Part shown: piece after piece, positions 13,891 through 28,811 of the stretch | How positions within the stretch are numbered: position 1 is the stretch's first letter | Layout of the letters: each line of letters opens with the position of its first letter | Assembly (NCBI RefSeq): GCF_003044035.1 | Contig: NZ_NVQC01000020.1 | Coordinates: 60,001-92,000, forward strand | Length of the DNA stretch: 32,000 bases | Direction: 5' to 3' | From: Candidatus Methylomirabilis limnetica | GTDB lineage: Bacteria > Methylomirabilota > Methylomirabilia > Methylomirabilales > Methylomirabilaceae | The notes under the pieces: generated by a model | The model's database searches: none | Told to the model about the DNA's origin: nothing | Seen by the model: the letters and a program-made list of their open reading frames with translations, nothing else | Position numbers and translations under genes: made by a program

Positions 13891-14340
13891 ATGAAGGTGT
13901 CCGCGAAGGGCGACTACGCTACACGAGCCATGCAAGATCTGGCTCTCCATTATGAGAAAGGGCCGATTCAGATAGAGGATATCGCCCGACGACAACACCT
14001 GCCGGCCCGTTACCTGGAACAGATCCTGTTAAGCCTCAAGCGAGCCGGCTTTCTCGAAAGCAAGCGGGGAGTCAGCGGGGGCTACTACCTGGCAAAGCAC
14101 CCCAGAGAGATTACGGTCGGAGCCATCATCAGGACCATGGAGGGCCCGATCATCCCTATCTTCTGTGTTGGGAGTGGGCCGCGAGAGATCTGCATTGAGG
14201 AGCCTCGCTGCGGCCTCCGGGATCTCTGGGCTGACGTGCGCGATGCCGTGGTGAAGATTGTGGACCACACCACGCTTGAAGACCTCAGCCGACAGATCCG
14301 TACGAGACAGGAGCGAGAGGGAGTAAGCTACCAGATCTAA
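13891..14340 (+). CDS. Rrf2-family transcriptional regulator (IscR/CymR-like) with three Cys in the cluster-ligand region
   Basis: The N-terminal wHTH MKVSAKGDYATRAMQDLA...IARRQHLPARYLEQILLSLKRAGFLESKRGVSGGYYLAK is classic Rrf2. It also has C-x9-C-x5-C (FCVGSGPREICIEEPRC). Confidence 0.85.
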   Translation: MKVSAKGDYATRAMQDLALHYEKGPIQIEDIARRQHLPARYLEQILLSLKRAGFLESKRGVSGGYYLAKHPREITVGAIIRTMEGPIIPIFCVGSGPREICIEEPRCGLRDLWADVRDAVVKIVDHTTLEDLSRQIRTRQEREGVSYQI

Positions 14341-16456: not shown

Positions 16457-16475
16457 GACCGCGAACGGCGCAGCC

Positions 16476-17492
16476 ATGATCCGAATGATGGGCCTGGGTC
16501 TCGTTGTCGGGGCAGCCTTCGGGTACGCCCTGCAGCGTGGGCGCTTTTGCATGAACTCTACGTTCCGCGATATCCTGCTGGCGCGGGATCTCACCCTGCT
16601 ACGGGCCTACATCCTGGCTCTTTTGATTCAGATGGTCGGGGTCAGGGCGATGGCGACGTTGGGTCTGTTCGGGCTGGGCGTCACACCATTTTTTTGGGTA
16701 GCGACGTTGTGCGGCGGGTTCGTGTTCGGTATCGGAATGGCCTTTTCCGGTGGGTGAGGGAGCGGCAGTACTTACCGGTCCGGTGAGGGGATGGTGGGTT
16801 CGATTATTGCGCTGCTCGGTTTTGTATTTGGGATCACGATGACCAATGACGGCGTTTTAGAGCCGGTGCAAGTCGTCTTGCGGAGCTCCGTGGTTGAGAT
16901 CGATGGGCAGCCCGCAACGCTGGATCGCCTCTTGGGCGTGAATCCATGGATACTGGTAGTAACCTTCGTCATAGTTGGCGGTTGGTGGCTTCTGAAAAGC
17001 CCGGCCGGCGGCTACCAGAGAGGGTGGAGTTGGACAAGGAGCGGCATCACCATCGGTCTGATAGCCACGGCTGCCTGGCCGATCTCAGCCCTGACCGGAA
17101 GGGAGTACGGTCTTTCGATCACCGAGCCGATCCGAACGATCTCGGGGTTCCTGTTCACCGGTGAGACCTCCCTGCTCACCTGGGGGAGTTTCATGTGGGT
17201 GGGGCTCATTGCGGGCGCATACGTGGCGGCGAGGTCACATGGAGAGTTTGCCTGGCGCGCCCCTGGCGCTCAGCGTCTTCTCCAGGCTCTCGGGGGTGGT
17301 CTGCTGATGGGCGTGGGGGCCGGCATTGCGGGTGGATGCAACATCGGTCATGGGCTGACTGGAGTTCCACTCTTTGGACTGAGCAGTGTGACGGCGACAC
17401 TCGGTATTATCCTGGGAGTATGGGTCGGAGTCTATCTGTTGTTTGGTAGCATTGCGTTTGAGCGTGGGCCGCGAAACGCCCAGCGGGCGTAG
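16476..17492 (+). CDS. YeeE/YedE-family sulfur (thiosulfate/selenium) transporter, interrupted by an in-frame TGA (16755-16757) at a conserved Cys; candidate selenoprotein, or else split or pseudogenised
   Basis: ORFs 16431..16757 and 16791..17492 share a frame, and only the TGA lies between them. Read-through gives ...GIGMAFSGG-U-GSGSTYRSGEGMVGSIIALLGF..., paralleling the second-half motif GIAGGCNIGHGLTG. The first family Cys is at RGRFCMN. The total is 338 codons, typical for the family. ATG 16476 follows the E1 stop codon. Confidence 0.65.
16771..16787 (+). promoter_or_regulatory. Hairpin 13 nt downstream of the YeeE UGA with a GGUCC apical loop (candidate bacterial SECIS)
   Basis: CUUACC (16771-16776), GGUCC loop, GGUGAG (16782-16787). 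That gives six pairs, one of them a G-U wobble. Loop sequence and distance from the UGA resemble the E. coli fdhF SECIS apical loop (GGUC), recalled from memory. Confidence 0.4.
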
Positions 17493-17536
17493 AGTCTTCC
17501 GAACGTGGTGGCGATCGTAAAATCATGGGGGCAGCG

Positions 17537-17791
17537 ATGACGAAGTACTCCCTTGATGTGACTGGAGAGATTTGTCCGTATCCTTTGATGTTGACCAAAC
17601 AGAAAATGGGGAAACTTACAGCCGGTGATCAACTAGTGGTAATTGTCGATTACGCGAAATCGGTAGAAGATATCCCCAGATGGGCGAAGGAGGAAGGTTA
17701 TGCGGTCCTCGCCATTTCGGAAGTTGGTAGAACTCAATGGGAAATCGTCCTGGAAAAAGTCTCACCTGCATTATTGGAGGAGGGGAAATGA
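17537..17791 (+). CDS. TusA/SirA/YeeD-like sulfurtransferase
   Basis: SLDVTGEICPYPLMLTKQKM contains the CPxP active-site motif in an ~80-aa protein. ATG 17525 is an alternative start. Confidence 0.8.
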   Translation: MTKYSLDVTGEICPYPLMLTKQKMGKLTAGDQLVVIVDYAKSVEDIPRWAKEEGYAVLAISEVGRTQWEIVLEKVSPALLEEGK

Positions 17792-18033
17792 GTGGGGCGC
17801 CTGAGCAGATAGCCGAGTCCCTTGATCTGAAGGGGGAGGTATGCCCCTACACGTTTGTGAAGACCAAATTGGCGCTGGAAGAGCTACAAAGCGGTCAGGC
17901 GCTGATAATCATAGTGGATAACCCTAGTTCTGCTGAGAACGTTCCCAGGAGTTTACGCAGTGAAGGGCATATAGTTGCGGATGCGACGAAGTTGAATGAC
18001 ACTGACTGGGCGATCACGGTAATAAAGGCCTGA
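17788..18033 (+). CDS. TusA/SirA/YeeD-like sulfurtransferase, second paralog
   Basis: SLDLKGEVCPYTFVKTKLALEEL has the CPY motif. ATG 17788 overlaps the upstream TGA (ATGA) and follows GGAGGAGGGG. The ORF-track start at 17737 is an out-of-frame overlap with the first gene. Confidence 0.8.
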   Translation: MSGAPEQIAESLDLKGEVCPYTFVKTKLALEELQSGQALIIIVDNPSSAENVPRSLRSEGHIVADATKLNDTDWAITVIKA

Positions 18034-18085: not shown

Positions 18086-19021
18086 ATGAAAAAAGTCGAT
18101 ATTCTTGATGCGATCGGGCACACGCCGCTGATCGAACTGTCGCGGATGAGTCCCAAGAAAGAGGTTCGGATCTTCGCCAAGCTGGAGGGAGTGAACCCGA
18201 CCGGCAGCTTGAAGGATCGAATAGCGAAGTACATGATCGAGCAGGCCGAGCGGAGCGGCGAACTGACGAAGGGCCAAACGATTCTGGAGCCAACGAGCGG
18301 CAACACCGGTATCGCCTTGGCCATGATCGGGCGGAGGAAGGGGTACAAGGTCAAGGCGGTGATCCCGGAAAACGCTACCCCGGAGAGACGTCAACTCCTT
18401 GAGATCTTCGGCGCCGAGTTGATCTATTCTGATGGGACCAAAGGGAGTAATGGGGCTATTGAGTTGGCTCAAGAGCTTGTGGCGCAGGATCCAACCCTCT
18501 ACATGCCCTTTCAGTACGGTAATCCGGCCAACCCTCTGGCCCACTACGAAACGACCGGGGTGGAGATCCTGAACGACCTCCCGGAGGTTGATGTCTTTGT
18601 GGCCGGCCTTGGGACCGGCGGAACCCTGATGGGCGTGGGGAGACGGCTGAAGGAGCGTAACCCCAAGACCAAGGTCATTGCCGTGGAGCCGAATCCGGGC
18701 GATCTGGTCCAGGGGCTTCGCAGTCTTGATGAGGGTTTCATTCCACCGATCCTTGACACCAGCCTCTTGGACGGCAAAATAATGGTCGATTCTCGCTGTG
18801 CCTTTGCCGCTACCAAAGATCTGACCAACAAGGAAGGGATCTTTGCCGGCGTGTCCTCTGGGGCTGTCGTTCATGTGGCGATCCGGACGGCGCATCGAAT
18901 GGAGAAGGGCAACATCGTGGTAATCCTCTGCGATGGCGGGTGGAAGTATGTGAGCCTGGGTGTCTGGCATAAGGAGTTTCCCGCGCTGGGCGAGAACATG
19001 TACAGTCACCTCTGGTGGTAG
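18086..19021 (+). CDS. cysM: Cysteine synthase B-type PLP enzyme (CysM-like)
   Basis: [32 protein letters not shown] and GLGTGGTLMG are present. It lies next to a JAMM peptidase, as in the mycobacterial cysO-cysM-mec arrangement. Confidence 0.8.
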   Translation: MKKVDILDAIGHTPLIELSRMSPKKEVRIFAKLEGVNPTGSLKDRIAKYMIEQAERSGELTKGQTILEPTSGNTGIALAMIGRRKGYKVKAVIPENATPERRQLLEIFGAELIYSDGTKGSNGAIELAQELVAQDPTLYMPFQYGNPANPLAHYETTGVEILNDLPEVDVFVAGLGTGGTLMGVGRRLKERNPKTKVIAVEPNPGDLVQGLRSLDEGFIPPILDTSLLDGKIMVDSRCAFAATKDLTNKEGIFAGVSSGAVVHVAIRTAHRMEKGNIVVILCDGGWKYVSLGVWHKEFPALGENMYSHLWW

Positions 19022-19046: not shown

Positions 19047-19511
19047 ATGATCCATACGCAACCGGGGCTGAACGAAATCTTCGCTCACGCCGAGGAGGCA
19101 TATCCTGAAGAGGCCTGCGGGGTCGTCATAGGGAAGCCAGGCGATCCGAGTACGAATATTATCCGCAGATGCGCGAATCTGGCGAACCAGTATCAGCAGG
19201 ACGATCCAATTCGTTATCCGAGAGATGCAAGGACCGCCTATATCATGGACCCAAAGGACCTTCTACGGATTCAGAGCGAAGCTGATGCCAAAGGTCTTGA
19301 GTTTGTCGTTATCTACCATTCACACCCAGATCATGAAGCCTACTTCTCTGAGACCGATCGAGACTTGGCGTTGTTCGACGGTGAACCGTTGTGGCCGCAG
19401 ATGCACTATCTTGTCGTGTCAGTGAAAAATGGGAAAGTGTTGTACTTCAAAGCATTCAGGTGGGACGCGATCAAAAAAGAGTTTGCAGAAGAACCATCTG
19501 CTGTCTTTTAG
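19047..19511 (+). CDS. JAMM/MPN+ metallopeptidase (Mec+/HcyD/QbsD-like)
   Basis: Has the catalytic Glu context EEACGVVIG and a complete JAMM motif, HSHPDHEAYFSETD (HxH-x7-S-xx-D). GTG 19026 is an alternative start. Confidence 0.8.
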   Translation: MIHTQPGLNEIFAHAEEAYPEEACGVVIGKPGDPSTNIIRRCANLANQYQQDDPIRYPRDARTAYIMDPKDLLRIQSEADAKGLEFVVIYHSHPDHEAYFSETDRDLALFDGEPLWPQMHYLVVSVKNGKVLYFKAFRWDAIKKEFAEEPSAVF

Positions 19512-19602: not shown

Positions 19603-20559
19603 ATGGAAGTAATGGGCATGATGGACCTTGATACCGGGCAAATCACGCTCATAGCTATCACGCTCTTTGCGGCCGCCGTCAATGGGGCGCTAGGGTATGG
19701 GTTTTCATCGCTGACCGTCCCGGTTGCCCTCATCTTCTATTCTAACAGGATCCTGAATCCCGCCTTGGTATTGGTGGAGGTGGCCCTTAATAGCTACGTG
19801 CTGCTCGTCAATCGCAGTAGCATCCGGAAGATCTGGAAGAGGGTGCTACCGATCGTATTTGGCCTTATTCCTGGTGTCATCGCGGGGAGTTATTTCCTCT
19901 CGATGGCGAACCCGGGATGGCTTAAGCTGATCACGTATCTCATCGTGCTGCCGTTGATCCTGCTGCAGGCGGCAGGGGTCAGGCGGCCGATTCGGTCCGA
20001 ACATCTCATTGGTGTCCCGTTCGGCGCCGGAGTTGGCGTTCTCTATTCAACAACCACCATCTCTGGTCCTCCTTTGGCGCTCCTGTTTAACAACCAGGGC
20101 TTTGTCAAAGGCGAGTTTAGAGCCGCCCTTGGTCTGATCAGAATGGTCGAATCAACCGTGACAGCGACCGCGTATTACTTTCTAGGAGTGTATACTGCAG
20201 AGAGTACGGGGCTCCTGTCGTCGATCGTTCCGAGCGTCGCGATCGGGATTCCGATAGGGGCCTACATCATCAGACGCATGAATGCTGAAACGTTCAGAAG
20301 AATCTGTATGAGCTTCGATGCCTGGGTGGTGGGCTTTGGATTATCGAAGGTATTTATCGAGCTGGGATTGATCGCAAGCCCGCGTGCCTACGGTGTCTGG
20401 CTGGCTGTTATCATGATCGATCTCTTTTTACTCTACGGCTTCTTTACGAGGGGGCCGGAGATCTCGGCGGCCGCCTTGGCTGTCGATGCCCCTGATGGGG
20501 GTTCCAGGCTCATGCATCAAAAAACGCCGACCATAACCCAGGACGATCTGCCTGCATGA
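19603..20559 (+). CDS. TauE/SafE (TSUP, DUF81) family anion permease
   Basis: Polytopic membrane protein with the family N-terminus AAAVNGALGYGFSSLTVP and an internal repeat GAGVGVLYSTTTISGPP. Confidence 0.7.
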   Translation: MEVMGMMDLDTGQITLIAITLFAAAVNGALGYGFSSLTVPVALIFYSNRILNPALVLVEVALNSYVLLVNRSSIRKIWKRVLPIVFGLIPGVIAGSYFLSMANPGWLKLITYLIVLPLILLQAAGVRRPIRSEHLIGVPFGAGVGVLYSTTTISGPPLALLFNNQGFVKGEFRAALGLIRMVESTVTATAYYFLGVYTAESTGLLSSIVPSVAIGIPIGAYIIRRMNAETFRRICMSFDAWVVGFGLSKVFIELGLIASPRAYGVWLAVIMIDLFLLYGFFTRGPEISAAALAVDAPDGGSRLMHQKTPTITQDDLPA

Positions 20560-20589: not shown

Positions 20590-22359
20590 ATGATGGGGAG
20601 GGCAATAATGAATGATGCGGGCGAAAACAGGCCGTCCTGGGCTAGTGAGGAGGAGATCGATACCTTCGATCAGTTCGTCCAAAGGTTCTGGAATGGGGAG
20701 ATCTCACCAGACGAGTTCAAGCGGTTCCGCCTGCAGAACGGGGTCTACGGACAGCGGCAGGAAGGGGAACAGATGCTCCGGATCAAGATCCCGTGGGGCG
20801 GTCTCAGCTCGGATCAACTGGAGCTGCTCGCCGAGCTGGCGGCGAAGGCTCCGAAGGGGGTAGGTCACGTGACTACCCGCCAGAACATCCAGTTCCACTT
20901 CATCAAACTCGACCAGGTGACAGGACTGACGAGGAGCCTGGCCTCAATCGGGCTGACGACCAGAGAGGCCTGCGGAAACACCGTTCGCACCGTTACGGTC
21001 GGGCACTGCGCCGGGGTCTGCCCTCAAGAAGTGTTCGACGTTACCCCGTATGCCGCTACGATTACGCGATTTCTCCTGCGCAATCCGATGAATCAGAACC
21101 TGCCCAGGAAGTTTAAAATCGCGTTCTCCGGCTGTCCCGACGACCTTGGTCTCACCCCTATCCAGGACATCGGTGCCCGTGCTGCGCTCCGATTGACAGC
21201 AGGAAAGGAGGAGCGGGGCTTTCAGCTTTATGTCGGGGGCGGCCTAGGCCCCACGCCACACCTCGCGGAGTTGCTCGAGGAGTTTACGCCGGCGAATCGG
21301 CTCCTGCCGACAGTGGCCGCTATTGTGCGCGTATTCGACCGCCTCGGTAATCGTGACGATCGACACAAGGCCAGAATGAAGTTCCTGTTGAACAAGCTGG
21401 GGATCGAGCAGTTTCGATTACTGGTGTTCCAGGAGCGGACCGGACTCGAATCAACAATGGCCGGACAGTTTCCCCCTCTTGTCAGTTGGGAGGAGATCCC
21501 GCCTCATCGTGCATCACCTGTTTCGGCGGGTCCCATCAAAGAGTCGGACGATCCTGCCTACCGGGGGTGGCGGACCACCAATGTGCTGAAGCAGAAGCAG
21601 GCCGGATACCTGATGGTTCATGTTCGCCTCGAACTCGGAGACGTCACCTCAGTACAGCTTAGAAGCCTTGCCTTCGCGGCGCGTGAGTTCGGCGATGGCA
21701 CAGTCCGCAGCACGAACCAGCAGAACTTCGCCCTCAGGTGGATTCCCTCTGAGCGCCTCCCTGCGCTCTATCGGTTGCTCCACGCTGTCGGCTTGGCTGC
21801 CCCGTCGGCTGAACGGTTGGCAGATATTACCGCTTGTCCAGGCGCTGATACCTGCCAGCTCGGAATCACCTCCTCTCGCGGCTTGGCGGCTGCCCTGGGA
21901 GCCCTCTTCGATGATGAACTGAGGGATCTGGCGGATGAGGCGGGGATTCGGATGAAGATTTCTGCCTGCCCAAACTCTTGTGGCCAGCACCACCTTGCGA
22001 ATATCGGGTTTTATGGCGGCGCCAAAAAGTTCAACGGCCGGCAGGTGCCGACCTACGAGATGTTGCTGGGTGCGAGTTTGGCGCCGGGCCAGGCGCAATA
22101 TGGCAAGCCGGTGGCACGGATCCCGGCAAAGAATATCCCGGGTGCGGTGGAGGCGGTCCTCCGTCTGTATCAGAAAGAGCGACAGGATGGCGAATCGTTC
22201 AACGGCTTTCTGGATCGCTATGGGTTGGAGACCGTGAAGATAGTCCTGGCGCCCTTTACAGACCTGCTGCCGGTCTCTGAGGCGCCGGATCACTATCTTG
22301 ACTATAACGCTGAAGAGGCGTTTTCCGTCCAGACCGGGCCTGGCGAGTGCGCTGCGTAA
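20590..22359 (+). CDS. Assimilatory sulfite reductase hemoprotein (ferredoxin-type nitrite/sulfite reductase, siroheme-[4Fe-4S])
   Basis: TTRQNIQFH is present. The cluster/siroheme Cys motifs are CPGADTC and CPNSCGQHHLANIGF. The half-domain is duplicated. Confidence 0.85.
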   Translation: MMGRAIMNDAGENRPSWASEEEIDTFDQFVQRFWNGEISPDEFKRFRLQNGVYGQRQEGEQMLRIKIPWGGLSSDQLELLAELAAKAPKGVGHVTTRQNIQFHFIKLDQVTGLTRSLASIGLTTREACGNTVRTVTVGHCAGVCPQEVFDVTPYAATITRFLLRNPMNQNLPRKFKIAFSGCPDDLGLTPIQDIGARAALRLTAGKEERGFQLYVGGGLGPTPHLAELLEEFTPANRLLPTVAAIVRVFDRLGNRDDRHKARMKFLLNKLGIEQFRLLVFQERTGLESTMAGQFPPLVSWEEIPPHRASPVSAGPIKESDDPAYRGWRTTNVLKQKQAGYLMVHVRLELGDVTSVQLRSLAFAAREFGDGTVRSTNQQNFALRWIPSERLPALYRLLHAVGLAAPSAERLADITACPGADTCQLGITSSRGLAAALGALFDDELRDLADEAGIRMKISACPNSCGQHHLANIGFYGGAKKFNGRQVPTYEMLLGASLAPGQAQYGKPVARIPAKNIPGAVEAVLRLYQKERQDGESFNGFLDRYGLETVKIVLAPFTDLLPVSEAPDHYLDYNAEEAFSVQTGPGECAA

Positions 22360-22427
22360 TCATCGGATCAAGAGAGTGCCGTAGTCGGCTGGGAAGGTCG
22401 GTATGAACAACAATGAGAGGAGAGGGA

Positions 22428-23408
22428 ATGGGGAGACGGGTCGTTAAGCTGGCGCCATGGATAACCGGGCTAGCCTTGGTAGTAGGAGTCACGTGGATCG
22501 GCCAGGCCCACGCATACGAAGCATGGGTGACGAATCAGGAAGACCATACCGTCACCGTGATCGATACCGAGACTAATACGGTCCTCGACACGATCACGCC
22601 GGGCGGCAAGAAGCCCCATAACGTCGCCTTTTCACCGGACGGCGCCCATGCCTTTGTCGCGAATGTGGCGTCCAACGACGTGAACATGATCGAGACAAAA
22701 ACGAGAAAGGTGATCGCGACATTTCCCGCCGGGATCAGGGCGCATGGCCTTGCCGTTGCCCCCGATGGTAAGCAGCTCTGGGTGGCGAACCCGGGATCAA
22801 ACGATGTGACAGTCATTGATCTTCAACTCCGGCAAACGATCGACACGATCCCAGTCGGGAAAGCCCCCGCGCTCGTAGTCTTTGATCCGAAAGGCGCGAG
22901 AGCCTTTGTCAGCAACGGGGGATCCGGGGACCTTTCTGTGATCGATGCGAAGAGCCGGAAGATCATTACCACCATCGAGGCAGGCAAGGGCGCCATGGGG
23001 ACAGATATCACATGGGACGGAAAGCTTCTGCTGGTTACAGCGGGGGATGTCGATCGAATCGACGTGATCGATGCGATTAGTCACCAGGTCAAGGCGAGGA
23101 TCCCGCGAGAGGGCGAACCGCATGGCCTTGTGCTGTCGCCTGACGGGAAGCGAGCATACGTTGGGAGCCGCAAGGCGAATGTGGTGTCGATTGTCGATTG
23201 CAAGCAGTTGAAGATTATAAAAGATATTCCAGCAGGCAAGCGGATCGACATCATCACGATTACGCCGGATGGCCGTCGCCTCTACGTGACCAGCCGTGAC
23301 ACCAATACCGTGATCGCCATCGATACGCTAACAGAGAAGGTTGTCGCTGAGATTCCGGTAGGAAAAGACCCTCACGGGATCGCTGTACTTCCTGCGAGCC
23401 ATCACTAA
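22428..23408 (+). CDS. Secreted YVTN-type beta-propeller repeat protein (cytochrome-d1/lactonase-like fold)
   Basis: Signal peptide MGRRVVKLAPWITGLALVVGVTWIGQAHA. Repeats run V-T-V-I-D-...-P-H-G-x-A-x-S-P-D-G-...-Y-V-x-N. GGAG lies 6 nt before ATG 22428, and ATG 22413 is an alternative start. Unlike 2755..3906, it has no C-terminal sorting signal. Confidence 0.75.
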   Translation: MGRRVVKLAPWITGLALVVGVTWIGQAHAYEAWVTNQEDHTVTVIDTETNTVLDTITPGGKKPHNVAFSPDGAHAFVANVASNDVNMIETKTRKVIATFPAGIRAHGLAVAPDGKQLWVANPGSNDVTVIDLQLRQTIDTIPVGKAPALVVFDPKGARAFVSNGGSGDLSVIDAKSRKIITTIEAGKGAMGTDITWDGKLLLVTAGDVDRIDVIDAISHQVKARIPREGEPHGLVLSPDGKRAYVGSRKANVVSIVDCKQLKIIKDIPAGKRIDIITITPDGRRLYVTSRDTNTVIAIDTLTEKVVAEIPVGKDPHGIAVLPASHH

Positions 23409-23577: not shown

Positions 23578-24339
23578 ATGATGGAAAGACAATCGGGAAT
23601 TCAGAGCGCAGAGAGCATTATTGAACTGAACGAGCGGTTCCGGGGGGCCGGGCCGGAGGTGGTGCTTCGGTGGGCGATCGACACCTTCGCTCCCAAGCTG
23701 GCGCTCGCCAGCAGTTTTGGGGCTGAAGATATGGTTTTAATCGATATGCTGTCGAAGCTCGAGCCGGCGACCACGATTTTCACCCTGGACACAGGTCGGT
23801 TGCATGAGGAGACGTACGACATAATGGAGCGGACCCGAGAACGGTACAAGGTTGCGATTGAGAGCTACTTCCCGGGGCGAGACGCCGTAGAGGCGCTAGA
23901 GCGCGAGCGCGGGTTTTATTCCTTCCGGCAGAGTATCGAGGAACGGAAGTTCTGCTGTCGCGTCCGAAAGGTGGAGCCGCTCGGTCGAGCGCTGCTAAAC
24001 GTTGATGCGTGGATCACCGGGCTCCGGCGGGAGCAGGCAGCGACCCGCACCGGCATCGACGCTGTTGAGATTGATGCGAGCCATGGCTCAATCGTTAAGA
24101 TCAATCCGCTCGTCGATTGGACCGAGTCGCAGGTCTGGGCGTATATCCGCGAGCACGATGTGCCCAGCAACGCTCTTCATGACCAGGGCTTTCCCAGCAT
24201 CGGCTGCGCGCCATGCACGAGGGCTATCAAGCCGGGCGAGGATGTACGAGCTGGACGATGGTGGTGGGAAAACCCGGAGACCAAGGAGTGCGGGCTGCAT
24301 CTGGAGAGCGGACACGGCGATCATGGCGCACGCGGCTAA
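23578..24339 (+). CDS. cysH: Assimilatory APS reductase ([4Fe-4S]-type CysH)
   Basis: SFGAEDMVLIDM and the catalytic ECGLH are present. The Fe-S Cys pairs FCCRVRK and GCAPC are typical of APS-specific rather than PAPS-specific enzymes. The start is ATG 23578 or 23581, after AGGAGG. Confidence 0.85.
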   Translation: MMERQSGIQSAESIIELNERFRGAGPEVVLRWAIDTFAPKLALASSFGAEDMVLIDMLSKLEPATTIFTLDTGRLHEETYDIMERTRERYKVAIESYFPGRDAVEALERERGFYSFRQSIEERKFCCRVRKVEPLGRALLNVDAWITGLRREQAATRTGIDAVEIDASHGSIVKINPLVDWTESQVWAYIREHDVPSNALHDQGFPSIGCAPCTRAIKPGEDVRAGRWWWENPETKECGLHLESGHGDHGARG

Positions 24340-24352
24340 GGCGAGGGGTACG

Positions 24353-25567
24353 ATGTCGACAGGAGAGCACACGATGCAGAAATCGATTGAATCGCCGGAG
24401 ACAGAGGCGCCGACACAGATCCTCCCTCACGGTGGGCGGCTCGTCTCTCGGATACTTACAGGAGAGGCCAGGGCCGACGCGATAGGTAGGGCGCAGGATC
24501 TCCCCGCGATTTCCTTGAACGCGAGGGCCGTGTCCGACGTGGAATGCCTGGCCACTGGCGTCTTTAGCCCGCTCGAAGGGTTTATGGATCGGGGTGACTA
24601 CGAGGGGGTGGTCAATGAGATGCGCATGAAGAACGGCATACTGTGGACGCTTCCGATCACCCTGGCCGCGCCCAAAGAGGAAGCGGCCGGGCTACGGGAG
24701 GGGGGAGAGGCGGCCTTGCTGGACTCGGACGGTGAGCTGCTTGGCCTCCTCTCAGTGCAGGAGATCTTCCCCTACGACAAGCGCGCGGAGGCGTGCCTGG
24801 TATACGCTACAGAAGAGACGCGCCACCCTGGCGTGCAGTACCTGTACCAGCGGGGAGAGCTCTTGGTGGGCGGGTCGATCAGCATGGTTCGCCCCCCGTC
24901 GTTACCGGGATTCGAAGACTATTACTGCGTGCCGGCTGAGACGCGGCGACGGTTCAAGGAGCGTGGATGGCAGACCGTAGTCGGGTTTCAGACCCGCAAC
25001 CCGATTCATCGGTCGCACGAGTACATCCAGAAATGCGCGTTAGAGTTGATGGACGGCCTGCTGATCCACCCGCTGGTCGGTCGGACAAAGCTCGACGATG
25101 TCCCATCAGAAATCCGTCTTCGATGCTATCGCGCGCTTGAGGAGTGCTACTTCCCGAAGGAGCGCGTCATGCTGAGCGTCTTCCCTGGCGCTATGCGATA
25201 TGCGGGGCCGCGCGAGGCGGTCTTCCATGCCCTCGTGCGCAAGAACTATGGATGTACCCACTTCATCGTTGGGCGGGACCCCGCAGGGGTAGGCGGCTTC
25301 TATCATCCATACGCCGCCCGTGACCTCTTCCTGCGGCTGTCACGCGACGAATTGGACATCACCCCGCTCTTCTTCGATGAGGCCTTCTTCTGCCGTCGCT
25401 GCGATGGGATGGCCTCGTCCAAGACCTGCCCACATGAGGCGTCCGAGCGGGTGACGCTGAGTGGCACGCGCGTTCGTGAACTCCTTCGGAGCGGTGAGGC
25501 GCTACCAGAAGAATTTACGCGGCCGGAGGTCTCCGAGATCCTGGCGGAATGGATGCAGGGTGAATAA
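24353..25567 (+). CDS. sat: Sulfate adenylyltransferase (ATP sulfurylase)
   Basis: FQTRNPIHRSHEY and HFIVGRDPAGVG are present. ATG 24353 follows the cysH stop and a GAGGGG Shine-Dalgarno. The ORF-track start at 24002 lies inside cysH in another frame. Confidence 0.85.
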   Translation: MSTGEHTMQKSIESPETEAPTQILPHGGRLVSRILTGEARADAIGRAQDLPAISLNARAVSDVECLATGVFSPLEGFMDRGDYEGVVNEMRMKNGILWTLPITLAAPKEEAAGLREGGEAALLDSDGELLGLLSVQEIFPYDKRAEACLVYATEETRHPGVQYLYQRGELLVGGSISMVRPPSLPGFEDYYCVPAETRRRFKERGWQTVVGFQTRNPIHRSHEYIQKCALELMDGLLIHPLVGRTKLDDVPSEIRLRCYRALEECYFPKERVMLSVFPGAMRYAGPREAVFHALVRKNYGCTHFIVGRDPAGVGGFYHPYAARDLFLRLSRDELDITPLFFDEAFFCRRCDGMASSKTCPHEASERVTLSGTRVRELLRSGEALPEEFTRPEVSEILAEWMQGE

Positions 25568-26230
25568 TCAGTTCTTTGGCGGCTTCGGTAGGCGGATGGT
25601 GGGGTAGTTGGCTGTCAACCAGTGGCCAATTCCCCCCGGGACATTGCCGGCCCTTGGGAAGCCGTGGTGAAGCAGGATGCTGGCCGCCGTGCTGCTGCGC
25701 ACACCTTCTTCGCAGATCAGGACGATGTGTCGACGGCGATCGAGTCCGTAAGTCTGCTGCCAGATTTCTGCAAGCGAGATGAGCAGCGAGCCTTTGATAT
25801 AGCCCAGCTCCCACTCGAACGGCTCCCGCACGTCGATCAGTATCAGTTCATCGTCCGGAGCGTTCAGGCGTTGCCAGAGATCCGAGACAGACACTTGTGA
25901 CAGTTGGACCAGCGGCAATCCTGCGTGGTCCCACGCCTCGGCGCCTCCAGTGACGATTCCCTGGAGAGGATTTCGATCCACCCACTGGAGCGCATCAGCC
26001 GCGGCCTCAGCAACACCCTCCTCGCCGGAGAGGAGTATGATCGGGGGACCGGGTGGGATCGCGGTCGCGACGCGCTCAGAGAGGCTTTTACGACTGAAGA
26101 CGATGTTGATACTGCCCGGAATATGGCGTGACGCGAACTCCTTGTGCGGGCGCAGATCGATCAGCAGCACGCCTTCGTCTAATGCGCTCTTTGCCTGATG
26201 TGGCGTCAACGTCGGTATCTCGCTTGGCAT
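25568..26230 (-). CDS. Tandem rhodanese-domain sulfurtransferase
   Basis: Two rhodanese folds. The C-terminal one has the active-site loop CEEGVRS. The N-terminal one has Ser at that position (LSGEEG). The start is uncertain: ATG 26230 or TTG 26329. Confidence 0.7.
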   Translation of the reverse strand: MPSEIPTLTPHQAKSALDEGVLLIDLRPHKEFASRHIPGSINIVFSRKSLSERVATAIPPGPPIILLSGEEGVAEAAADALQWVDRNPLQGIVTGGAEAWDHAGLPLVQLSQVSVSDLWQRLNAPDDELILIDVREPFEWELGYIKGSLLISLAEIWQQTYGLDRRRHIVLICEEGVRSSTAASILLHHGFPRAGNVPGGIGHWLTANYPTIRLPKPPKN

Positions 26231-26506: not shown

Positions 26507-26746
26507 ATGGCGAAAAAACGCATACACTTAACGTTTACCGGTAAGCTGGCCGAGGAGCCGATCCTGTGGCAGCTTAGTCAGACCTTCAACGTGGTCTTCA
26601 ATATTCGCCAGGCCGACTTTACCGAGGGAATCGGGTGGATCATGGCGGAGCTTGAGGGAGACCCTCAGCCGCTTGAGAATGGGATTACGTGGCTGGAGGA
26701 TCATGGTGTCCATGTGGCGCCCATCGAGCAGGACGTCGTCTCTTAA
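26507..26746 (+). CDS. Stand-alone NIL-domain protein (MetN C-terminal-like ferredoxin fold)
   Basis: 79 aa. ...EPILWQLSQTFNVVFNIRQADFTEGIGWIMAELEG...GITWLEDHGVHVAPI matches the NIL-domain pattern (..NIl.a.i....G.l.lel.G). Confidence 0.65.
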   Translation: MAKKRIHLTFTGKLAEEPILWQLSQTFNVVFNIRQADFTEGIGWIMAELEGDPQPLENGITWLEDHGVHVAPIEQDVVS

Positions 26747-26794
26747 GGAGATCGAGTCCTTGATTGTTGCTTGATAGGTAGCTGCTCAGGTGTT

Positions 26795-26812
26795 TAGGCT
26801 GAAGGCTGTAGG
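26795..26812 (-). repeat. Partial inverted copy (R4) of the dispersed repeat
   Basis: The reverse complement cctacagccttcagccta matches the core of R1 and R2. Confidence 0.5.
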
Positions 26813-26913
26813 CTGTTAGCCGTTGCGCATGGACCAAATCAAGGCGCCTAGAACCTTTTCGGTCTCCATCATTTTCGCGTCGCATTCGGAAAACGCCTGG
26901 CTCATCGGTGCGC

Positions 26914-26949
26914 GTTCCTACAGTCTAAAAGATTACAGTCTATCTACCT
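26914..26949 (+). repeat. Divergent copy (R3) of the dispersed repeat
   Basis: gttcctacagtctaaaagattacagtctatctacct shares gttcctac...ctaaaag...cagtct...atctacct with R2. Confidence 0.6.
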
Positions 26950-26977
26950 AAGTAGTTACCGGTGAAGGGACCATGTG

Positions 26978-27214
26978 ATGCCAAAACGGATGATCACACT
27001 CATCTACCCACAGGCACTGATCAAAGAGCCGGTGATCTATCGTCTTGCGCGTGAATTTAAGCTCATTCCTAATATTCGCCGGGCGCGAGTGACGGAGCAG
27101 GCAGGCGAGGTCATGCTGGAGTTGGACGGCGAGGAGGAAGCGTTGAATAAGGGGATTGCCTACCTGGCCGGTTTAGGGATCAGGGTGGAGCCGACTCCGG
27201 AGAAGGGACGCTGA
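26978..27214 (+). CDS. Stand-alone NIL-domain protein, second paralog
   Basis: MPKRMITLIYPQALIKEPVIYRLAREFKLIPNIRRARVTEQAGEVMLELDGEEEALNKGIAYLAGLGIRVEP aligns along its length with 26507..26746. Its stop is 1 nt before the ThrC-like ATG. Confidence 0.65.
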   Translation: MPKRMITLIYPQALIKEPVIYRLAREFKLIPNIRRARVTEQAGEVMLELDGEEEALNKGIAYLAGLGIRVEPTPEKGR

Positions 27215-27215
27215 G

Positions 27216-28478
27216 ATGGCGCAGGTGAAAGGATTGAAGTGCAGGGAGTGCGGCAGACCATATCCCGCTGAGCCTCTGCATGTCTGTGAGTTCTGTTTCG
27301 GGCCTCTTGAGGTCGATTACGATTACGACGCACTCCGCGGTACGCTGACCAGAAAAGCGATCGAGGCTGGACCGCCCAGCATCTGGCGATACAAGGCGCT
27401 GCTGCCGATCGAGGGAGAGCCCGTGGTCGGGAAACATTGCGGGATGACGCCCCTCGTGAGGGCCAAGAACCTGGCGCGCGCGTTAGGCATGCGGGAGGTC
27501 TATGTCAAAAACGATACCGTGAGCCATCCCACCTTTTCATTTAAGGATCGGGTGGTGGCGGTAGCGGTGACTAAGGCCGTGGAGTTTGGCTTCAAGGTGG
27601 TGGCCTGTGCCTCTACCGGCAACCTGGCAAACTCGGTGGCGGCCCACGCCGCCGAAGGGGGGCTTCGAAGCTTCGTCTTTGTGCCGTCCGACCTGGAGCA
27701 GGGCAAGGTGCTGGGCACCCTGATCTACAACCCAAAGCTGGTGGCCGTGGACGGCAACTACGATGAGGTCAACCGTCTGTGCAGCGAGATTGCCGATAAA
27801 TATGGATGGGCCTTTGTGAACATTAATATCCGGCCTTACTACGCTGAGGGCTCCAAAACCTTTGGGTACGAGATCGCAGAGCAACTTGGCTGGCGTGCGC
27901 CCCAGCACATCGTTGTGCCGGCCGCGGGGGGTTCGCTGGTCACGAAGATCTTGAAGGGGCTTAAGGAGTTCGATCGACTCGGCCTCCTGAATGGCGGCTG
28001 CGCTACGCGGATGCACGTGGCCCAGGCGGAAGGGTGTGGCCCCATTGTGACCGCTATCAAGGCGAACAGCGAGATCATTAAACCGGTCAAGCCAAAGACA
28101 ATCGCCAAGTCGCTCGCCATCGGGAACCCGGCGGACGGCTACTACGCCTACAAGGTCGTCAAGGAGAGTGGTGGCCACGGGGAACATGCCACAGATGAGG
28201 AGATTGTGGAGGGTATGAAGCTGTTGGCCAGCACTGAAGGGATCTTTTCCGAGACCGCCGGCGGGGTGACGATAGCGGCGGCCAAACGGCTGATCGAGCA
28301 GGGGCGAATCCCCAGGGACGAAAGCCTGGTCCTCTGTATCACCGGCAACGGGCTGAAGACCCAGGAGGCAGTCGCCTCATCACTGAAGGTTCGGCTGCAC
28401 ATCAAACCGACCCTTCGAGCGTTTGATGAAGCGATGGTCTCTCATGGAATCGACGTCACGTCGAGAACAATGGACTAA
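27216..28478 (+). CDS. Threonine-synthase-family PLP enzyme with an N-terminal Zn ribbon (ThrC or MetM-like homocysteine synthase)
   Basis: CRECGRPYPAEPLHVCEFCFGPLEV is the Zn ribbon. HPTFSFKDR holds the PLP Lys, and ASTGNLANS is present. It lies directly upstream of a MoaD-like carrier. Confidence 0.8.
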   Translation: MAQVKGLKCRECGRPYPAEPLHVCEFCFGPLEVDYDYDALRGTLTRKAIEAGPPSIWRYKALLPIEGEPVVGKHCGMTPLVRAKNLARALGMREVYVKNDTVSHPTFSFKDRVVAVAVTKAVEFGFKVVACASTGNLANSVAAHAAEGGLRSFVFVPSDLEQGKVLGTLIYNPKLVAVDGNYDEVNRLCSEIADKYGWAFVNINIRPYYAEGSKTFGYEIAEQLGWRAPQHIVVPAAGGSLVTKILKGLKEFDRLGLLNGGCATRMHVAQAEGCGPIVTAIKANSEIIKPVKPKTIAKSLAIGNPADGYYAYKVVKESGGHGEHATDEEIVEGMKLLASTEGIFSETAGGVTIAAAKRLIEQGRIPRDESLVLCITGNGLKTQEAVASSLKVRLHIKPTLRAFDEAMVSHGIDVTSRTMD

Positions 28479-28532
28479 AGCACGAAAACACGAGAGCGTA
28501 TACGGCGAGCTATTATCGAAAGGAGCAGATTG

Positions 28533-28811
28533 ATGGGTGTGAAAGTGCGCATCCCGACCCCTTTACGTGGTCTGACCAGCGGTCAAGGGGAGGTTGAGGG
28601 GCAAGGGGACTCTATTAATGAGCTGATCGAGAATCTGGAGCAGTCGTACGCTGGCCTGAGGGAGCGGATCTACGATGACTCCGGCAGCGTCCGCCGCTTC
28701 ATCAATATCTATGTGAATGAGGAAGACATCCGATTTCTGCAGGGGGTCTCGACGCAGCTCAAGCCAGGCGATCTTGTATCAATCGTTCCGGCCATCGCTG
28801 GTGGTTGCTGA
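28533..28811 (+). CDS. MoaD/ThiS-family ubiquitin-fold sulfur carrier ending in ...AIAGG-C (one residue beyond the di-glycine)
   Basis: MGVKVRIPTPLRGLT...INIYVNEEDI...PGDLVSIVPAIAGGC-stop. AGGAG lies 7 nt upstream. It is a paralog of the N-terminal domain of 15308..16456. Confidence 0.8.
   Translation: MGVKVRIPTPLRGLTSGQGEVEGQGDSINELIENLEQSYAGLRERIYDDSGSVRRFINIYVNEEDIRFLQGVSTQLKPGDLVSIVPAIAGGC

Follow-up and report, generated by a model that had tools for sequence, protein, structure and literature searches.

A putative MetM/MetO-type homocysteine branch with two stand-alone NIL-domain proteins in a thiocarboxylate sulfur-assimilation cluster of Candidatus Methylomirabilis limnetica

In the CysO-CysM-Mec-MoeZ system of Mycobacterium tuberculosis, a PLP enzyme combines a carrier thiocarboxylate with a phosphorylated precursor, and an S-to-N shift is followed by JAMM hydrolysis; to our knowledge, this mycobacterial system has no NIL partners. 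JAMM peptidases also remove residues after the carrier GG in the Wolinella succinogenes HcyS-HcyD-HcyF-MetY and Pseudomonas QbsE/QbsD systems, and Wolinella makes homocysteine from the protein thiocarboxylate via a MetY-type O-acetylhomoserine sulfhydrylase. In Streptomyces albulus, the MetM/MetO route leads from O-phosphohomoserine to homocysteine (Hasebe et al. 2024, AEM 90:e01247-24, as described in the GapMind 2026 preprint and in PMC12172450), and the pathway components given in the preprint are MetO, Mec, MoeZ, and MetM only. NIL domains are known from two other settings. The DUF39 (HcyBio) homocysteine pathway of methanogens and Desulfovibrio, whose substrate is aspartate semialdehyde, includes a NIL-ferredoxin (MA1822, DvMF_0262; PMC5764234), and in the C2 domain of MetN, N295 hydrogen-bonds L-Met across the dimer, with N295A abolishing binding (PMC6233128).

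Here, we analyzed 32,000 nucleotides of Candidatus Methylomirabilis limnetica (contig NZ_NVQC01000020.1, positions 60,001 to 92,000; the window), in which a first-pass annotation had proposed a second, MetM/MetO-like thiocarboxylate branch at 26507-28811. The four ORFs placed there are all present on the + strand with the domain matches described (Table 1), and the 1-nt gap noted between NIL2 and the ThrC-like gene is seen in the sequence, where it separates the NIL2 stop (27212-27214) from the enzyme ATG (27216). Two 79-aa NIL proteins had been claimed; this length holds for NIL1, but NIL2 is more likely 78 aa. Its ORF was listed as 26975-27214, with the GTG at 26975 giving 79 aa, and we favor the ATG at 26978 because gene callers use it on at least 24 independent contigs and homologues begin MPKRM. 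The carrier is the final operon gene, with a convergent OmpH/Skp gene next. Since independent samples yield the order NIL1-NIL2-enzyme-carrier on at least 24 contigs, and five related species share it, the arrangement is neither chance nor an assembly feature. The best named homologues (95%) come from Ca. Methylomirabilis (NC10). We propose, with a probability of roughly 0.6, that 26507-28811 provides the homocysteine branch within a thiocarboxylate sulfur-assimilation cluster, in which NIL1 and NIL2 would form a ligand-binding regulatory dimer.

Table 1. Features of the homocysteine branch and the surrounding sulfur cluster (window positions)
Feature	Position	Strand	Evidence or remark
Rrf2-family regulator, cluster head	13891-14340	+	PF02082, E 1.4e-38
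Second CysK/M paralogue	14374-15288		PALP, E 3e-76 and 6e-77 with CysM-like enzyme
E1: MoaD-like domain (end IPAMAGG) fused N-terminally to ThiF adenylyltransferase	15308-16456	+	PF02597 + PF00899
CysM-like PLP enzyme adjoining JAB	18086-19021	+	PALP, E 3e-76 and 6e-77 with paralogue
JAB/JAMM Mec-like peptidase	19047-19511	+	PF14464, E 3e-26
TauE	19603-20559	+	Pfam/NCBIfam
Sulfite reductase	20590-22359	+	Pfam/NCBIfam
Beta-propeller protein	22413-23408	+	Pfam/NCBIfam
APS/PAPS reductase	23581-24339	+	Pfam/NCBIfam
ATP sulfurylase	24374-25567	+	Pfam/NCBIfam
Tandem-rhodanese protein, 220 aa, divergent from NIL1	25568-26230	-	PF00581, E 1.5e-27, two stretches
NIL1, stand-alone NIL-domain protein, 79 aa	26507-26746	+	PF09383, E 3e-17
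Spacer NIL1/NIL2, 231 nt	26747-26977	+	No SAM-I riboswitch
NIL2, stand-alone NIL-domain protein, 78 aa	26978-27214	+	PF09383, E 1.4e-14
MetM-like candidate, ThrC-family PLP enzyme, 420 aa	27216-28478	+	PALP, E 2e-68
MetO-like ThiS/MoaD carrier, 92 aa, end IVPAIAGGC	28533-28811	+	PF02597, E 2.7e-15

The enzyme-carrier pair is widespread, its genome matches numbering at least 586 and spanning many phyla, and loci related to that of the window also hold Sat, CysH, Sir, CysM, TusA, ThiF, and JAB. A NIL domain is found in 58 of 80 MetM-MetO loci, lying downstream in 44, fused to MetO in nine, and upstream in five, and every one of six NIL-centered look-ups adjoins MetM-MetO. Fusions among the best 150 representatives include tandem NIL-NIL (11), JAB-NIL, MetM-NIL, and ThiF-NIL, and translational coupling links NIL genes with ThiF or MetM. 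These associations make it highly probable that NIL is a functional partner of the MetM/MetO branch. While free-standing NIL proteins had first been called unusual, they are in fact regular beside the enzyme-carrier pair, and it is their duplication and upstream position that are lineage-specific. Since the four-component list of the preprint holds no NIL, about 11 well-covered loci of the 80 are without one, and none lies within 6 kb of the actinomycete MetM-like locus that we examined, NIL appears to be dispensable for catalysis. Like the NIL-ferredoxin of the DUF39 pathway, NIL is genetically tied to homocysteine synthesis here, and one locus (L005) carries the DUF39 and MetM-MetO systems side by side; unlike that 4Fe-4S protein, the window NIL proteins have no Cys and a thiocarboxylate partner.

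NIL1 and NIL2 are only 35% identical, and each belongs to a separately conserved orthologue group, NIL1 being a divergent "GW" paralogue with orthologues 63-82% identical in four relatives (L009-L012). Judged by sequence, they are a Methylomirabilales-specific paralogue pair. The AF2 model of NIL2 (pLDDT 92.3) finds its best PDB matches in MetN C2 domains (TM 0.83-0.85, rmsd 1.0-1.2 Å), with SeMet-bound 3tuz among them. NIL belongs to the same Pfam family as MetN C2 (3dhw, 3tui, 3tuz, 6cvl; PMC6233128) and has retained its Asn and Ala in the methionine/dimer-interface strand. The NIL2 motif N32-I-R-x-A36 aligns to MetN N295...A299, is retained in NIL1, and is 97-99% conserved in this family; that NIL occurs in tandem fusions and as paired paralogues implies that the unit is a dimer. 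On the other hand, NIL is free-standing and not an ABC ATPase tail, is about 20-23% identical to MetN C2, and is partnered with a biosynthetic enzyme-carrier pair and not a transporter. Since a near-invariant, family-specific Arg34 replaces MetN Ile297, the NIL ligand may differ from that of MetN. The methionine-sensing idea raised at first pass fits the predicted fold, the kept N295/A299 positions, and the fusions, and a methionine-type ligand-binding regulatory dimer is the likeliest role for NIL, although we hold it only tentatively, at somewhat less than even odds.

NIL might instead be a non-catalytic adaptor or cap that binds no ligand, either scaffolding MetM, MetO, E1, and JAB or shielding the carrier C terminus or thiocarboxylate. 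In the nine MetO-NIL loci, NIL begins 1-3 residues past GG and itself caps the carrier, and the fusions to JAB, ThiF, and MetM, together with the translational coupling, would suit such a part; Arg34 could likewise hold a C-terminal carboxylate or thiocarboxylate and not an amino acid. However, 97% conservation of the L-Met-binding positions of MetN (N295, A299) speaks for a ligand, the tandem NIL-NIL fusions suggest a MetN-like dimer, and NIL fuses to several enzymes of one pathway as do ACT-like ligand-binding modules, for which such promiscuity is expected. We consider the adaptor or cap unlikely and retain the ligand-binding dimer as the preferred reading.

The enzyme itself carries a 4-Cys ribbon at residues 8-32 (C9, C12, C24, C27). 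Zn-ribbon ThrC-family enzymes also occur in unrelated contexts. In a neighbor-joining tree, the window-type enzymes form one clade with Nonomuraea, Streptosporangium, and Planomonospora proteins (100/100 bootstrap), and canonical ThrC (Aquifex 2zsj and five Nitrospirota proteins) group apart (88/100). This placement separates the enzyme from bona fide ThrC, and its link to the characterized S. albulus MetM runs through these actinomycete proxies. The window enzyme is 52% identical to the Nonomuraea protein, whose gene has a MetO-like gene after it and a SAM-I riboswitch before it, and 40% identical to Aquifex ThrC; 22 clade-invariant differences from canonical ThrC lie in substrate-loop motifs, including the TGN-TS, N-S..R, and GNAGN loops. 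A MetO-like carrier lies directly downstream of the enzyme in 77/80 related loci, the remaining three being cut by contig ends, and a canonical ThrC adjoins the pair in five Nitrospirota loci (L039, L055, L080, L082, L084).

SAM-I riboswitches precede the MetM-MetO operon in three phyla. In all five closest related species, one such riboswitch with a terminator occupies the position of the NIL1/NIL2 spacer (RF00162, 78-95 bits in L008-L012), with NIL1 upstream of it; a further locus, L070, scores 96 bits, and our own SAM-I model, R1, finds riboswitches in L068, in L088, and before the Nonomuraea gene. A SAM riboswitch is reported at the same upstream position for S. albulus metM (PMC12172450). 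The window species is without one, as its spacer has no Rfam match at the gathering threshold or at E ≤ 1 and no match to R1 with default filters (best 3.5 bits with filters off). The same spacer, predicted to form a long imperfect hairpin (z = -1.97), occurs on at least 24 independent contigs.

The locus shares with S. albulus a ThrC-family PLP enzyme followed by a ThiS/MoaD carrier with GG, an expected need for a MoeZ-type E1 and for a JAB/Mec peptidase that matures the carrier, an upstream SAM riboswitch (in sister species and Nonomuraea), and an enzyme that pipelines label threonine synthase. Unlike S. albulus, window-type loci add one or two stand-alone NIL proteins, the window E1 contains a fused second carrier but no rhodanese domain, the window species has lost the riboswitch, and the pair sits inside a full sulfate-assimilation cluster. 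The absence of a riboswitch from the window operon counts against the MetM/MetO reading. Together, however, the clade, the carrier adjacency, the canonical ThrC next to the pair in five loci, and the riboswitches in three phyla bear out the first-pass proposal, and the enzyme and carrier are very probably a MetM/MetO-type pair, a thiocarboxylate-dependent homocysteine synthase acting on O-phosphohomoserine.

There is little room for a plain or bifunctional threonine synthase whose neighboring carrier has another use. The enzyme does exceed the cut-off of TIGR00260, the NCBI thrC model (291 against 167 bits), but this model cannot discriminate MetM-like from ThrC proteins, since the MetO-adjacent Nonomuraea protein passes too. 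All of the closest solved structures are of threonine synthases, and a Microcystis homologue, encoded beside a metO-like gene and sharing 51.6% identity with S. albulus MetM, reportedly converted O-phosphohomoserine to threonine in vitro (PMC12172450), so that residual or dual threonine synthase activity of the window enzyme is possible. Against this stand the separate clade with its replaced substrate-loop motifs, the adjacent carrier, the canonical ThrC beside the pair in five loci, and riboswitches, found before the operon in three phyla, that sense SAM and are not threonine-related. Still less probable is another sulfur product, such as another thio-amino acid or a cofactor or natural-product precursor. 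ThiS/MoaD carriers serve many pathways, and the unrelated contexts of Zn-ribbon ThrC-family enzymes would allow it, but the SAM riboswitches before the operon, the surrounding assimilatory sulfate reduction genes with CysM, the breadth of genome matches, which fits a housekeeping function, and an arrangement related to that reported for S. albulus metM-metO all argue for the MetM/MetO-type pair.

An HMM scan of the window finds no second ThiF-type E1 or JAB peptidase, in keeping with the earlier count of one E1 and one JAMM enzyme, which both carriers would share. The JAB motif HSHPDHEAYFSETD is intact (HxH...SxxD), and this single peptidase is expected to take off the Cys cap, separate the fused carrier from the E1, and free amino-acid adducts. 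The CysM-like enzyme probably represents a cysteine branch in the thiocarboxylate system, the genes from TauE to ATP sulfurylase presumably assimilate sulfate as the source of reduced sulfur, and the tandem-rhodanese protein could donate sulfur to the E1, which has no rhodanese domain of its own. An Rrf2 gene recurs beside many MetM-like loci. The logic is that of CysO-CysM-Mec-MoeZ, including a CysM-like branch beside the JAB gene and a GG-Cys end that mimics the CysO-Cys adduct cleaved by Mec; the enzyme of the second branch, unlike CysK/M, is of the ThrC family, and homocysteine is the expected product. A role for NIL in sulfur relay (persulfide or Fe-S), or its origin as disrupted-metN fragments, is suggested by the NIL-4Fe-4S ferredoxin fusion of the DUF39 system (PMC5764234) and by a weak NIL1 score (30.8 bits) against the MetN equivalog model but is effectively refuted by the sequences, as NIL1 and NIL2 lack Cys, only 9/72 NIL domains hold any, no ABC ATPase ORF or remnant lies nearby, and NIL genes encode complete domains of 78-84 aa with their own starts, conserved across hundreds of clusters and, in this species, on at least 24 contigs.

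Like HcyS and QbsE, the window carrier is made with a post-GG residue that needs JAMM removal, although Wolinella uses a MetY-type enzyme. The GG-C end was correctly read at first pass but is not distinctive. What follows GG in related carriers is hypervariable, ranging from no tail through R, K, or C to longer tails and fusions that in some lineages extend into NIL or E1; only 2/75 end in Cys, and the closest relatives stop at GG; by this comparison, the cap is real but incidental, with no special meaning beyond needing a JAB cut.

From the domains, clade, conserved gene order, fusions, relatives' riboswitches, and predicted fold with its retained motif, we infer the following enzymatic steps, NIL ligand, and regulatory target. 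Upstream Sat, CysH, and Sir would reduce sulfate, and JAB would first remove the encoded Cys, as only then could E1 adenylate the C-terminal Gly of the carrier. Carrier-COSH would form with sulfur from sulfide or from neighboring rhodanese or TusA proteins, and the MetM-like enzyme would use it in a gamma-replacement of O-phosphohomoserine. After an S-to-N acyl shift, JAB would free homocysteine and regenerate the carrier. The NIL1/NIL2 dimer may bind methionine, or a related compound such as homocysteine or SAM, across its interface, as MetN C2 does, and tune MetM, MetO, E1, or JAB by protein-protein contact, which would amount to protein-level feedback control. We found no description of NIL as a companion of the MetM-MetO pathway in the searchable literature, and the new point is that small NIL proteins accompany the carrier-based homocysteine pathway in many bacterial phyla.

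The four genes at the center of the locus lie where the first-pass annotation had placed them, with ORFs and Pfam matches in agreement: two small stand-alone NIL-domain (PF09383) proteins (NIL1 and NIL2), a ThrC-family PLP enzyme, and a ThiS/MoaD-type carrier 54 nt downstream of the enzyme. The single nucleotide said to separate NIL2 from the enzyme gene is read in the sequence, between the NIL2 stop codon and the enzyme ATG. Both NIL proteins had been described as 79 aa long, which holds for NIL1, while the most likely start of NIL2 is ATG 26978, which makes it 78 aa long; this is the start chosen by gene callers on independent contigs and found likewise in homologues. Since the ORFs, the Pfam domains, and the recurrence of an identical gene order in independent samples (at least 24 contigs) agree, we regard the observed gene set as real. 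By its nearest named homologues, the window belongs to Candidatus Methylomirabilis (phylum NC10). When the operon and its flanks were scanned for promoters and terminators, no signal rose above chance. The surroundings form one large sulfur-assimilation cluster with an Rrf2 regulator, CysK/M, a MoaD-ThiF fusion, a YeeE-like transporter, two TusA-like genes, a CysM-like gene, JAB, TauE, sulfite reductase, a β-propeller protein, APS/PAPS reductase, and ATP sulfurylase. As had been claimed, the domain scan finds just one ThiF-type adenylyltransferase (E1) and one Mec-like JAB/JAMM peptidase in the window.

Features of the locus and of related loci in other genomes (window positions, or handle and position)
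Feature	Position	Strand	Details
ThiF E1	15308-16456	+	MoaD/ThiS-like domain fused at N terminus; sole E1 of window
YeeE/YedE-like sulfur-transport gene	16431-17492	+	PF04143; single frame broken by one TGA, 16755-16757
TusA-like ORF, first	17525-17791	+	after YeeE-like gene
TusA-like ORF, second	17737-18033	+	overlaps first by 55 nt as listed
JAB	19047-19511		JAMM motif intact; sole JAB of window
YncE-like seven-bladed β-propeller	22413-23408	+	flanked by sulfite reductase and APS/PAPS reductase in the sulfate-assimilation operon
Tandem-rhodanese gene	25568-26230		divergent, directly upstream of NIL1
NIL1	26507-26746	+	79 aa; Pfam NIL E 3e-17
NIL1-NIL2 spacer	26747-26977		231 nt
NIL2	26975-27214 as listed	+	Pfam NIL E 1.4e-14
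ThrC-family enzyme	27216-28478	+	420 aa; PALP E 2e-68; 4-Cys ribbon, residues 8-32
ThiS/MoaD-type carrier	28533-28811	+	92 aa; PF02597 E 2.7e-15; C-terminus IVPAIAGGC
SAM-I riboswitch, Methylomirabilales	L008:74-195		
SAM-I riboswitch, Methylomirabilales	L009:8491-8612		
SAM-I riboswitch, Methylomirabilales	L010:9552-9667		
SAM-I riboswitch, Methylomirabilales	L011:269-394		
SAM-I riboswitch, Methylomirabilales	L012:9481-9597		
Canonical ThrC, Thermodesulfovibrionia-type	L039:8737-9792		next to MetM-MetO-NIL
Canonical ThrC, Thermodesulfovibrionia-type	L055:11419-12510		next to MetM-MetO-NIL
Canonical ThrC, Thermodesulfovibrionia-type	L080:2237-3367		next to MetM-MetO-NIL
Canonical ThrC, Thermodesulfovibrionia-type	L082:2359-3507		next to MetM-MetO-NIL
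Canonical ThrC, Thermodesulfovibrionia-type	L084:11856-12947		next to MetM-MetO-NIL
DUF39/HcyBio gene	L005:13812-15017		
Multi-4Fe-4S protein	L005:15377-16207		
CysK/M with ThiS-like domain	L001:1732-2874		N-terminal domain ending ...FMGGG
CysK/M with ThiS-like domain	L005:4177-5316		N-terminal domain ending ...FMGGG
CysK/M with ThiS-like domain	L093:2712-3875		N-terminal domain ending ...FMGGG

Within this cluster, the TGA that breaks the YeeE-like frame (context ...AFSGG-[TGA]-GSGS...) takes what we take to be the position of the central conserved Cys of the family's GGCxSG motif, and the Cys motifs RFCMN and AGGCNIGHG are intact. A hairpin of marginal stability (z = -1.75) begins about 11 nt past the TGA, which could be a selenocysteine codon and not the mark of a pseudogene. 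YeeE and a TusA-like protein cooperate in thiosulfate uptake; if the pair here does the same, the cluster would have another source of sulfur beside sulfate.

The enzyme-carrier pair had been likened to the MetM/MetO route, first described in 2024 in Streptomyces (Hasebe et al. 2024, via GapMind 2026). In the part of the GapMind 2026 preprint that deals with this route, citing Hasebe et al. 2024, the components are MetO (the carrier), Mec (which matures MetO), MoeZ (the E1), and MetM, a MetO-thiocarboxylate-dependent homocysteine synthase that uses O-phosphohomoserine; the same part names threonine synthase (ThrC) as a common misannotation of MetM. We tested the assignment through proxies, namely actinomycete proteins in place of the S. 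albulus sequences themselves. In a neighbor-joining tree (100 bootstraps), the window-type enzymes formed one clade with proteins from Nonomuraea, Streptosporangium, and Planomonospora (100/100), and canonical ThrC (Aquifex 2zsj and five Nitrospirota ThrC) formed a separate clade (88/100). This places the enzyme with MetO-adjacent actinomycete enzymes and, through these proxies, supports the proposed resemblance to MetM, not ThrC. The window enzyme shares 52% identity with the Nonomuraea protein and 33-40% with canonical ThrC; for scale, S. albulus MetM and a Microcystis homologue share 51.6% (PMC12172450). A SAM-I riboswitch precedes the Nonomuraea gene and a carrier ending AVAGG follows it, whereas the window has enzyme and carrier in the same order but no riboswitch. 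A protein search seeded with the Nonomuraea enzyme, together with a tblastn search of a plasmid database, yielded no Streptomyces orthologue, only Streptosporangiales and distant ThrC-like genes.

The two clades also differ at the residue level, with 22 alignment columns that are invariant within each clade and different between MetM-like and canonical ThrC. The ThrC motifs TGN-T-S, N-S-x-N-P-x-R, and G-N-A-G-N are absent throughout the MetM-like clade, which instead has TGN-L-A, N-x-N-x-R-P-Y-Y, and A-x-G-S (T to L137, S to A138, R to Y209, G to A237, and G to S240). Going by the Thermus ThrC literature, the replaced loop motifs presumably hold the substrate or product phosphate, and their replacement would fit a reaction course other than that of ThrC. 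NCBIfam and Pfam models did not separate MetM-like from ThrC; the window enzyme scores 291 bits with TIGR00260 (cut-off 167), a model that cannot discriminate, as the MetO-adjacent Nonomuraea and L084 (Nitrospirota) proteins pass it as well as canonical ThrC. The Zn ribbon was ruled out as a diagnostic of MetM, since ThrC-like genes of Haloarcula, Priestia, and Bosea, which fall outside the clade and have no carrier neighbor, share the N-terminal ribbon region.

Five Nitrospirota loci carry a canonical short ThrC (351-382 aa; TIGR00260 328 bits; 64.5% identical to Aquifex ThrC) directly after MetM-MetO-NIL. Both paralogues thus coexist, and two presumed O-phosphohomoserine consumers are encoded next to each other. 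The Nonomuraea record has three ThrC-like places. The Microcystis homologue, which is encoded beside a metO-like gene, is reported to make threonine from O-phosphohomoserine in vitro (PMC12172450), and dual activity may occur within the MetM-like clade. With gene context, tree, the Nonomuraea bridge, ThrC coexistence, and motifs in its support, the window pair is, judging from sequence, very probably MetM/MetO, a further case of a known, recently described pathway. The window supplies the E1 and the JAB that the pathway requires, but its E1 lacks the rhodanese domain of MoeZ.

When an alignment of window-type enzymes was run against species-representative genomes, at least 586 matches came back; 80 loci (63-91% identity) were kept and their ORFs scanned with custom HMMs. 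These loci come from Methylomirabilota, Rokubacteria, Omnitrophota, Nitrospirota, Nitrospinota, Planctomycetia, Elusimicrobiota, Deltaproteobacteria, and others. The MetO-like carrier lies directly downstream of the enzyme in 77 of the 80, contig ends interrupting the other three, and the usual company is Sat, CysH, Sir, CysK/M, TusA, ThiF, and JAB. Two contigs labelled Nitrosotalea sp. (L027) and Ca. Nitrosocosmicus sp. (L031) hold a MetM-MetO-NIL set 68-69% identical to that of the window; given their Rokubacteria-type gene order and shared single-Arg carrier tail, they are probably mis-binned bacterial contigs and not from ammonia-oxidizing archaea. L005, and likewise L006 and L007, have genes for DUF39/HcyBio and for a multi-4Fe-4S protein a few kb from MetM-MetO-ThiF-NIL, and one organism of this type may hold two unconventional homocysteine routes. 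Carrier-ThiF fusions like the window E1 occur in the related loci L001, L012, L035, L040, and L057, and in some loci with such a fusion the fused carrier is the only one adjoining the MetM-like gene. The CysK/M fusions of some Omnitrophota-type loci are a further sign of frequent fusion and fission in the carrier system.

NIL proteins accompany this route closely. Look-ups centered on NIL placed it beside MetM-MetO in 6 of 6 loci, one of which has no CysM nearby, and NIL2 homologues stand alone (78-84 aa) in NC10, Omnitrophota, and other lineages. Among the 80 MetM-centered loci, 58 have NIL. It lies downstream in 44 (as MetM-MetO-NIL or MetM-MetO-ThiF-NIL), is fused to MetO in 9, and lies upstream in 5; in 11 of the 22 NIL-less loci, the sequence available downstream is shorter than 1.3 kb. 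Stand-alone NIL proteins had been called unusual, and this view gives way for the family as a whole but stands for the duplicate pair, which is specific to Methylomirabilales. In the MetO-NIL fusions, known here from Planctomycetia, Omnitrophota, and several deltaproteobacterial lineages, a single ORF encodes both parts and NIL starts 1-3 residues past GG. An exhaustive NIL profile search gave 555 representative clusters (E ≤ 1e-10); the best 150 of these comprise 70 stand-alone proteins of ≤95 aa, 11 tandem NIL-NIL, 8 MetO-NIL, one JAB-NIL (P0401), and apparent MetM-NIL and ThiF-NIL, the last two being fragmentary gene calls and less certain. The searchable literature returned no mention of stand-alone NIL proteins in thiocarboxylate clusters; the pathway as laid out in the relevant part of the GapMind 2026 preprint has four components, none of them NIL, to which the window adds NIL1 and NIL2; and the actinomycete (Nonomuraea) locus has no NIL within 6 kb. 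Since NIL is missing from both the published pathway and the actinomycete locus, it is accessory, which suits regulation better than catalysis. Altogether, we put the probability that NIL is a functional partner of the MetM/MetO pathway at about 0.9.

The predicted fold is the β-α-β-β-α-β fold of NIL/MetN C2 domains. For the AlphaFold (AF2) model of NIL2 (pLDDT 92.3), the top 11 PDB matches are all MetN C2/NIL domains, the selenomethionine-bound form included (best matches TM 0.83-0.85, rmsd ~1 Å). A family profile was required to see this in sequence searches of the PDB, where the profile matched 3dhx (9.6e-6) and single-sequence phmmer with NIL2 found no meaningful match. An almost invariant N-I-R-x-A motif (conservation 97-99% in a set of 72 NIL domains) aligns with N295-I-I-S-A299 of E. 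coli MetN, so that N32 and A36 of NIL2, each 97% conserved over the 72 domains, align with N295 and A299. In MetN, L-methionine sits across the C2 dimer, hydrogen-bonded to N295, and is no longer bound by the N295A variant; A299 lies in an interface strand whose register shifts with methionine (PMC6233128). Unlike MetN, where the NIL domain tails an ABC ATPase, NIL1 and NIL2 are free-standing with no ABC ATPase nearby. ACT-like regulatory domains offer an example of a small ligand-binding module that is typically fused to several enzymes of one pathway. For the specific mechanism in which NIL is a methionine sensor, we would give slightly less than even odds. Its main rival, an adaptor or cap that works independently of ligand, can call on the Arg that is invariant in the window NIL family where MetN has Ile, as this residue might just as well hold a terminal carboxylate or thiocarboxylate; against it stand the retained Asn and Ala, and we consider it unlikely. 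A sulfur-delivery role, which the first-pass annotation had also entertained, was rejected: the lack of a conserved Cys (none in NIL1 or NIL2, and any Cys in only 9 of 72 domains) speaks against a persulfide or Fe-S relay, and the two proteins have no Fer4 match, unlike the NIL-ferredoxin of the DUF39 pathway (MA1822 type) with its fused 4Fe-4S domain. Fragments of metN were likewise rejected, as these are complete domains with their own starts in conserved small genes with no ATPase remnant nearby.

NIL1 and NIL2 share 35% identity, and across Methylomirabilales their orthologues are 63-82% (NIL1) and 45-85% (NIL2) identical. The duplication is old and both copies have been kept, which, together with tandem NIL-NIL proteins elsewhere, suggests a NIL1/NIL2 heterodimer. 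When the NIL1-NIL2 spacers of relatives were aligned, the conserved element proved to be a SAM-I riboswitch (Rfam RF00162, 78-95 bits; gathering score 44.4), present between the two genes in all five of the closest Methylomirabilales relatives (L008-L012) and followed in the alignment by a terminator-like hairpin and T run in L009-L011. In relatives, NIL1 is upstream and NIL2 downstream of the riboswitch, and in L010 NIL1 directly follows Sat; since they lie on opposite sides of it, the two copies are probably under different control. In the deltaproteobacterial L070, the riboswitch is immediately upstream of the enzyme gene (96 bits), and a custom covariance model built from these six riboswitches (L008-L012 and L070) added two, at the operon head in L068 (Desulfuromonadales) and before the Nonomuraea gene in L088. 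Genes for methionine, cysteine, and SAM are the targets of SAM riboswitches. A SAM riboswitch is also reported upstream of S. albulus metM (PMC12172450). Together, these riboswitches, a regulatory and not a catalytic feature of the pathway, provide independent functional evidence for (NIL2-)MetM-MetO as a methionine-biosynthesis operon.

The window itself yielded no riboswitch with the Rfam gathering threshold, with Rfam at E ≤ 1 on the spacer, or with the custom model at default filters, and its best score with the custom SAM model and filters off was 3.5 bits. Its NIL1-NIL2 spacer is unrelated sequence with a long imperfect hairpin (z = -1.97, marginal) and short internal repeats (AGGCTGT twice and TACAGTCT twice), and this same 231-nt spacer is found on every contig of the window's species that was compared. 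Since the riboswitch is absent here and present in sister species (90-91% enzyme identity), RNA-level SAM control has been lost in the window's species.

The window carrier ends ...AIAGGC, in agreement with the earlier description of one Cys past the di-glycine. Among 75 orthologous carriers (motif PAIAGG) from the 80 loci, 12, including the three closest relatives, end at GG; 20 have one further residue (R 12, K 3, C 2, and one each of H, Y, and G), 11 have two, and 20 have 3-20, with 3 fused to ThiF and 9 to a NIL domain. With only 2 of 75 carriers Cys-ended, the Cys cap is ruled out as a specific conserved signal, and which residues make up the tail is not under selection. The majority of carriers require trimming, in keeping with the near-constant presence of JAB. 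Mec-type peptidases hydrolyze the CysO-Cys adduct, which the GG-Cys end resembles, so the single JAB is a plausible processor of the window carrier. Like the capped carriers HcyS-Ala and QbsE-CF, the window carrier has a residue after GG and a JAMM peptidase in its cluster. The carrier domain fused to the E1 (junction ...IPAMAGG-SAPFSEEQ...) can only be activated after a cut behind GG.

Building on the anatomy of the locus, its clade placement and conserved neighborhoods, the fusions and riboswitches, and a predicted fold in which the motif is retained, we infer the following course. JAB would trim the carrier, which the single E1 would adenylate and which would be thiocarboxylated; the MetM-like enzyme would join the thiocarboxylated carrier to O-phosphohomoserine, and JAB would release homocysteine. 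A NIL dimer would bind methionine or a close relative and modulate one pathway protein. A joint reading, doubtful as a whole, would make NIL the first known allosteric sensors of prokaryotic ubiquitin-like (carrier/E1/JAB) sulfur transfer, with a methionine- (or homocysteine- or SAM-) binding dimer gating carrier maturation, activation, or use. NIL would then be a removable carrier cap in some lineages, Methylomirabilales would combine a constitutive NIL1 with a SAM-riboswitch-controlled NIL2, and in the window's species, with its riboswitch lost, methionine would control the pathway chiefly by feedback through these proteins.

What appears new here is the conserved NIL partnership, the NIL fusions, and the layout NIL1-riboswitch-NIL2, from which the window's species has lost the riboswitch. 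The route is widespread across bacterial phyla, though databases still call its enzyme "threonine synthase," and MetM-like enzymes can be re-annotated by the motifs specific to their clade, by an adjacent carrier, by NIL, and by the SAM riboswitch. This breadth matters when methionine prototrophy is predicted for uncultured lineages, the nitrite-dependent methane oxidizers among them. Outside actinomycetes, a stand-alone NIL protein is the usual third component of the route, and the NIL domains of the MetN importer, of the DUF39 homocysteine pathway, and of MetM/MetO share a methionine/homocysteine theme. The NIL partnership thus offers a testable hypothesis of feedback control on a ubiquitin-like sulfur-carrier system.
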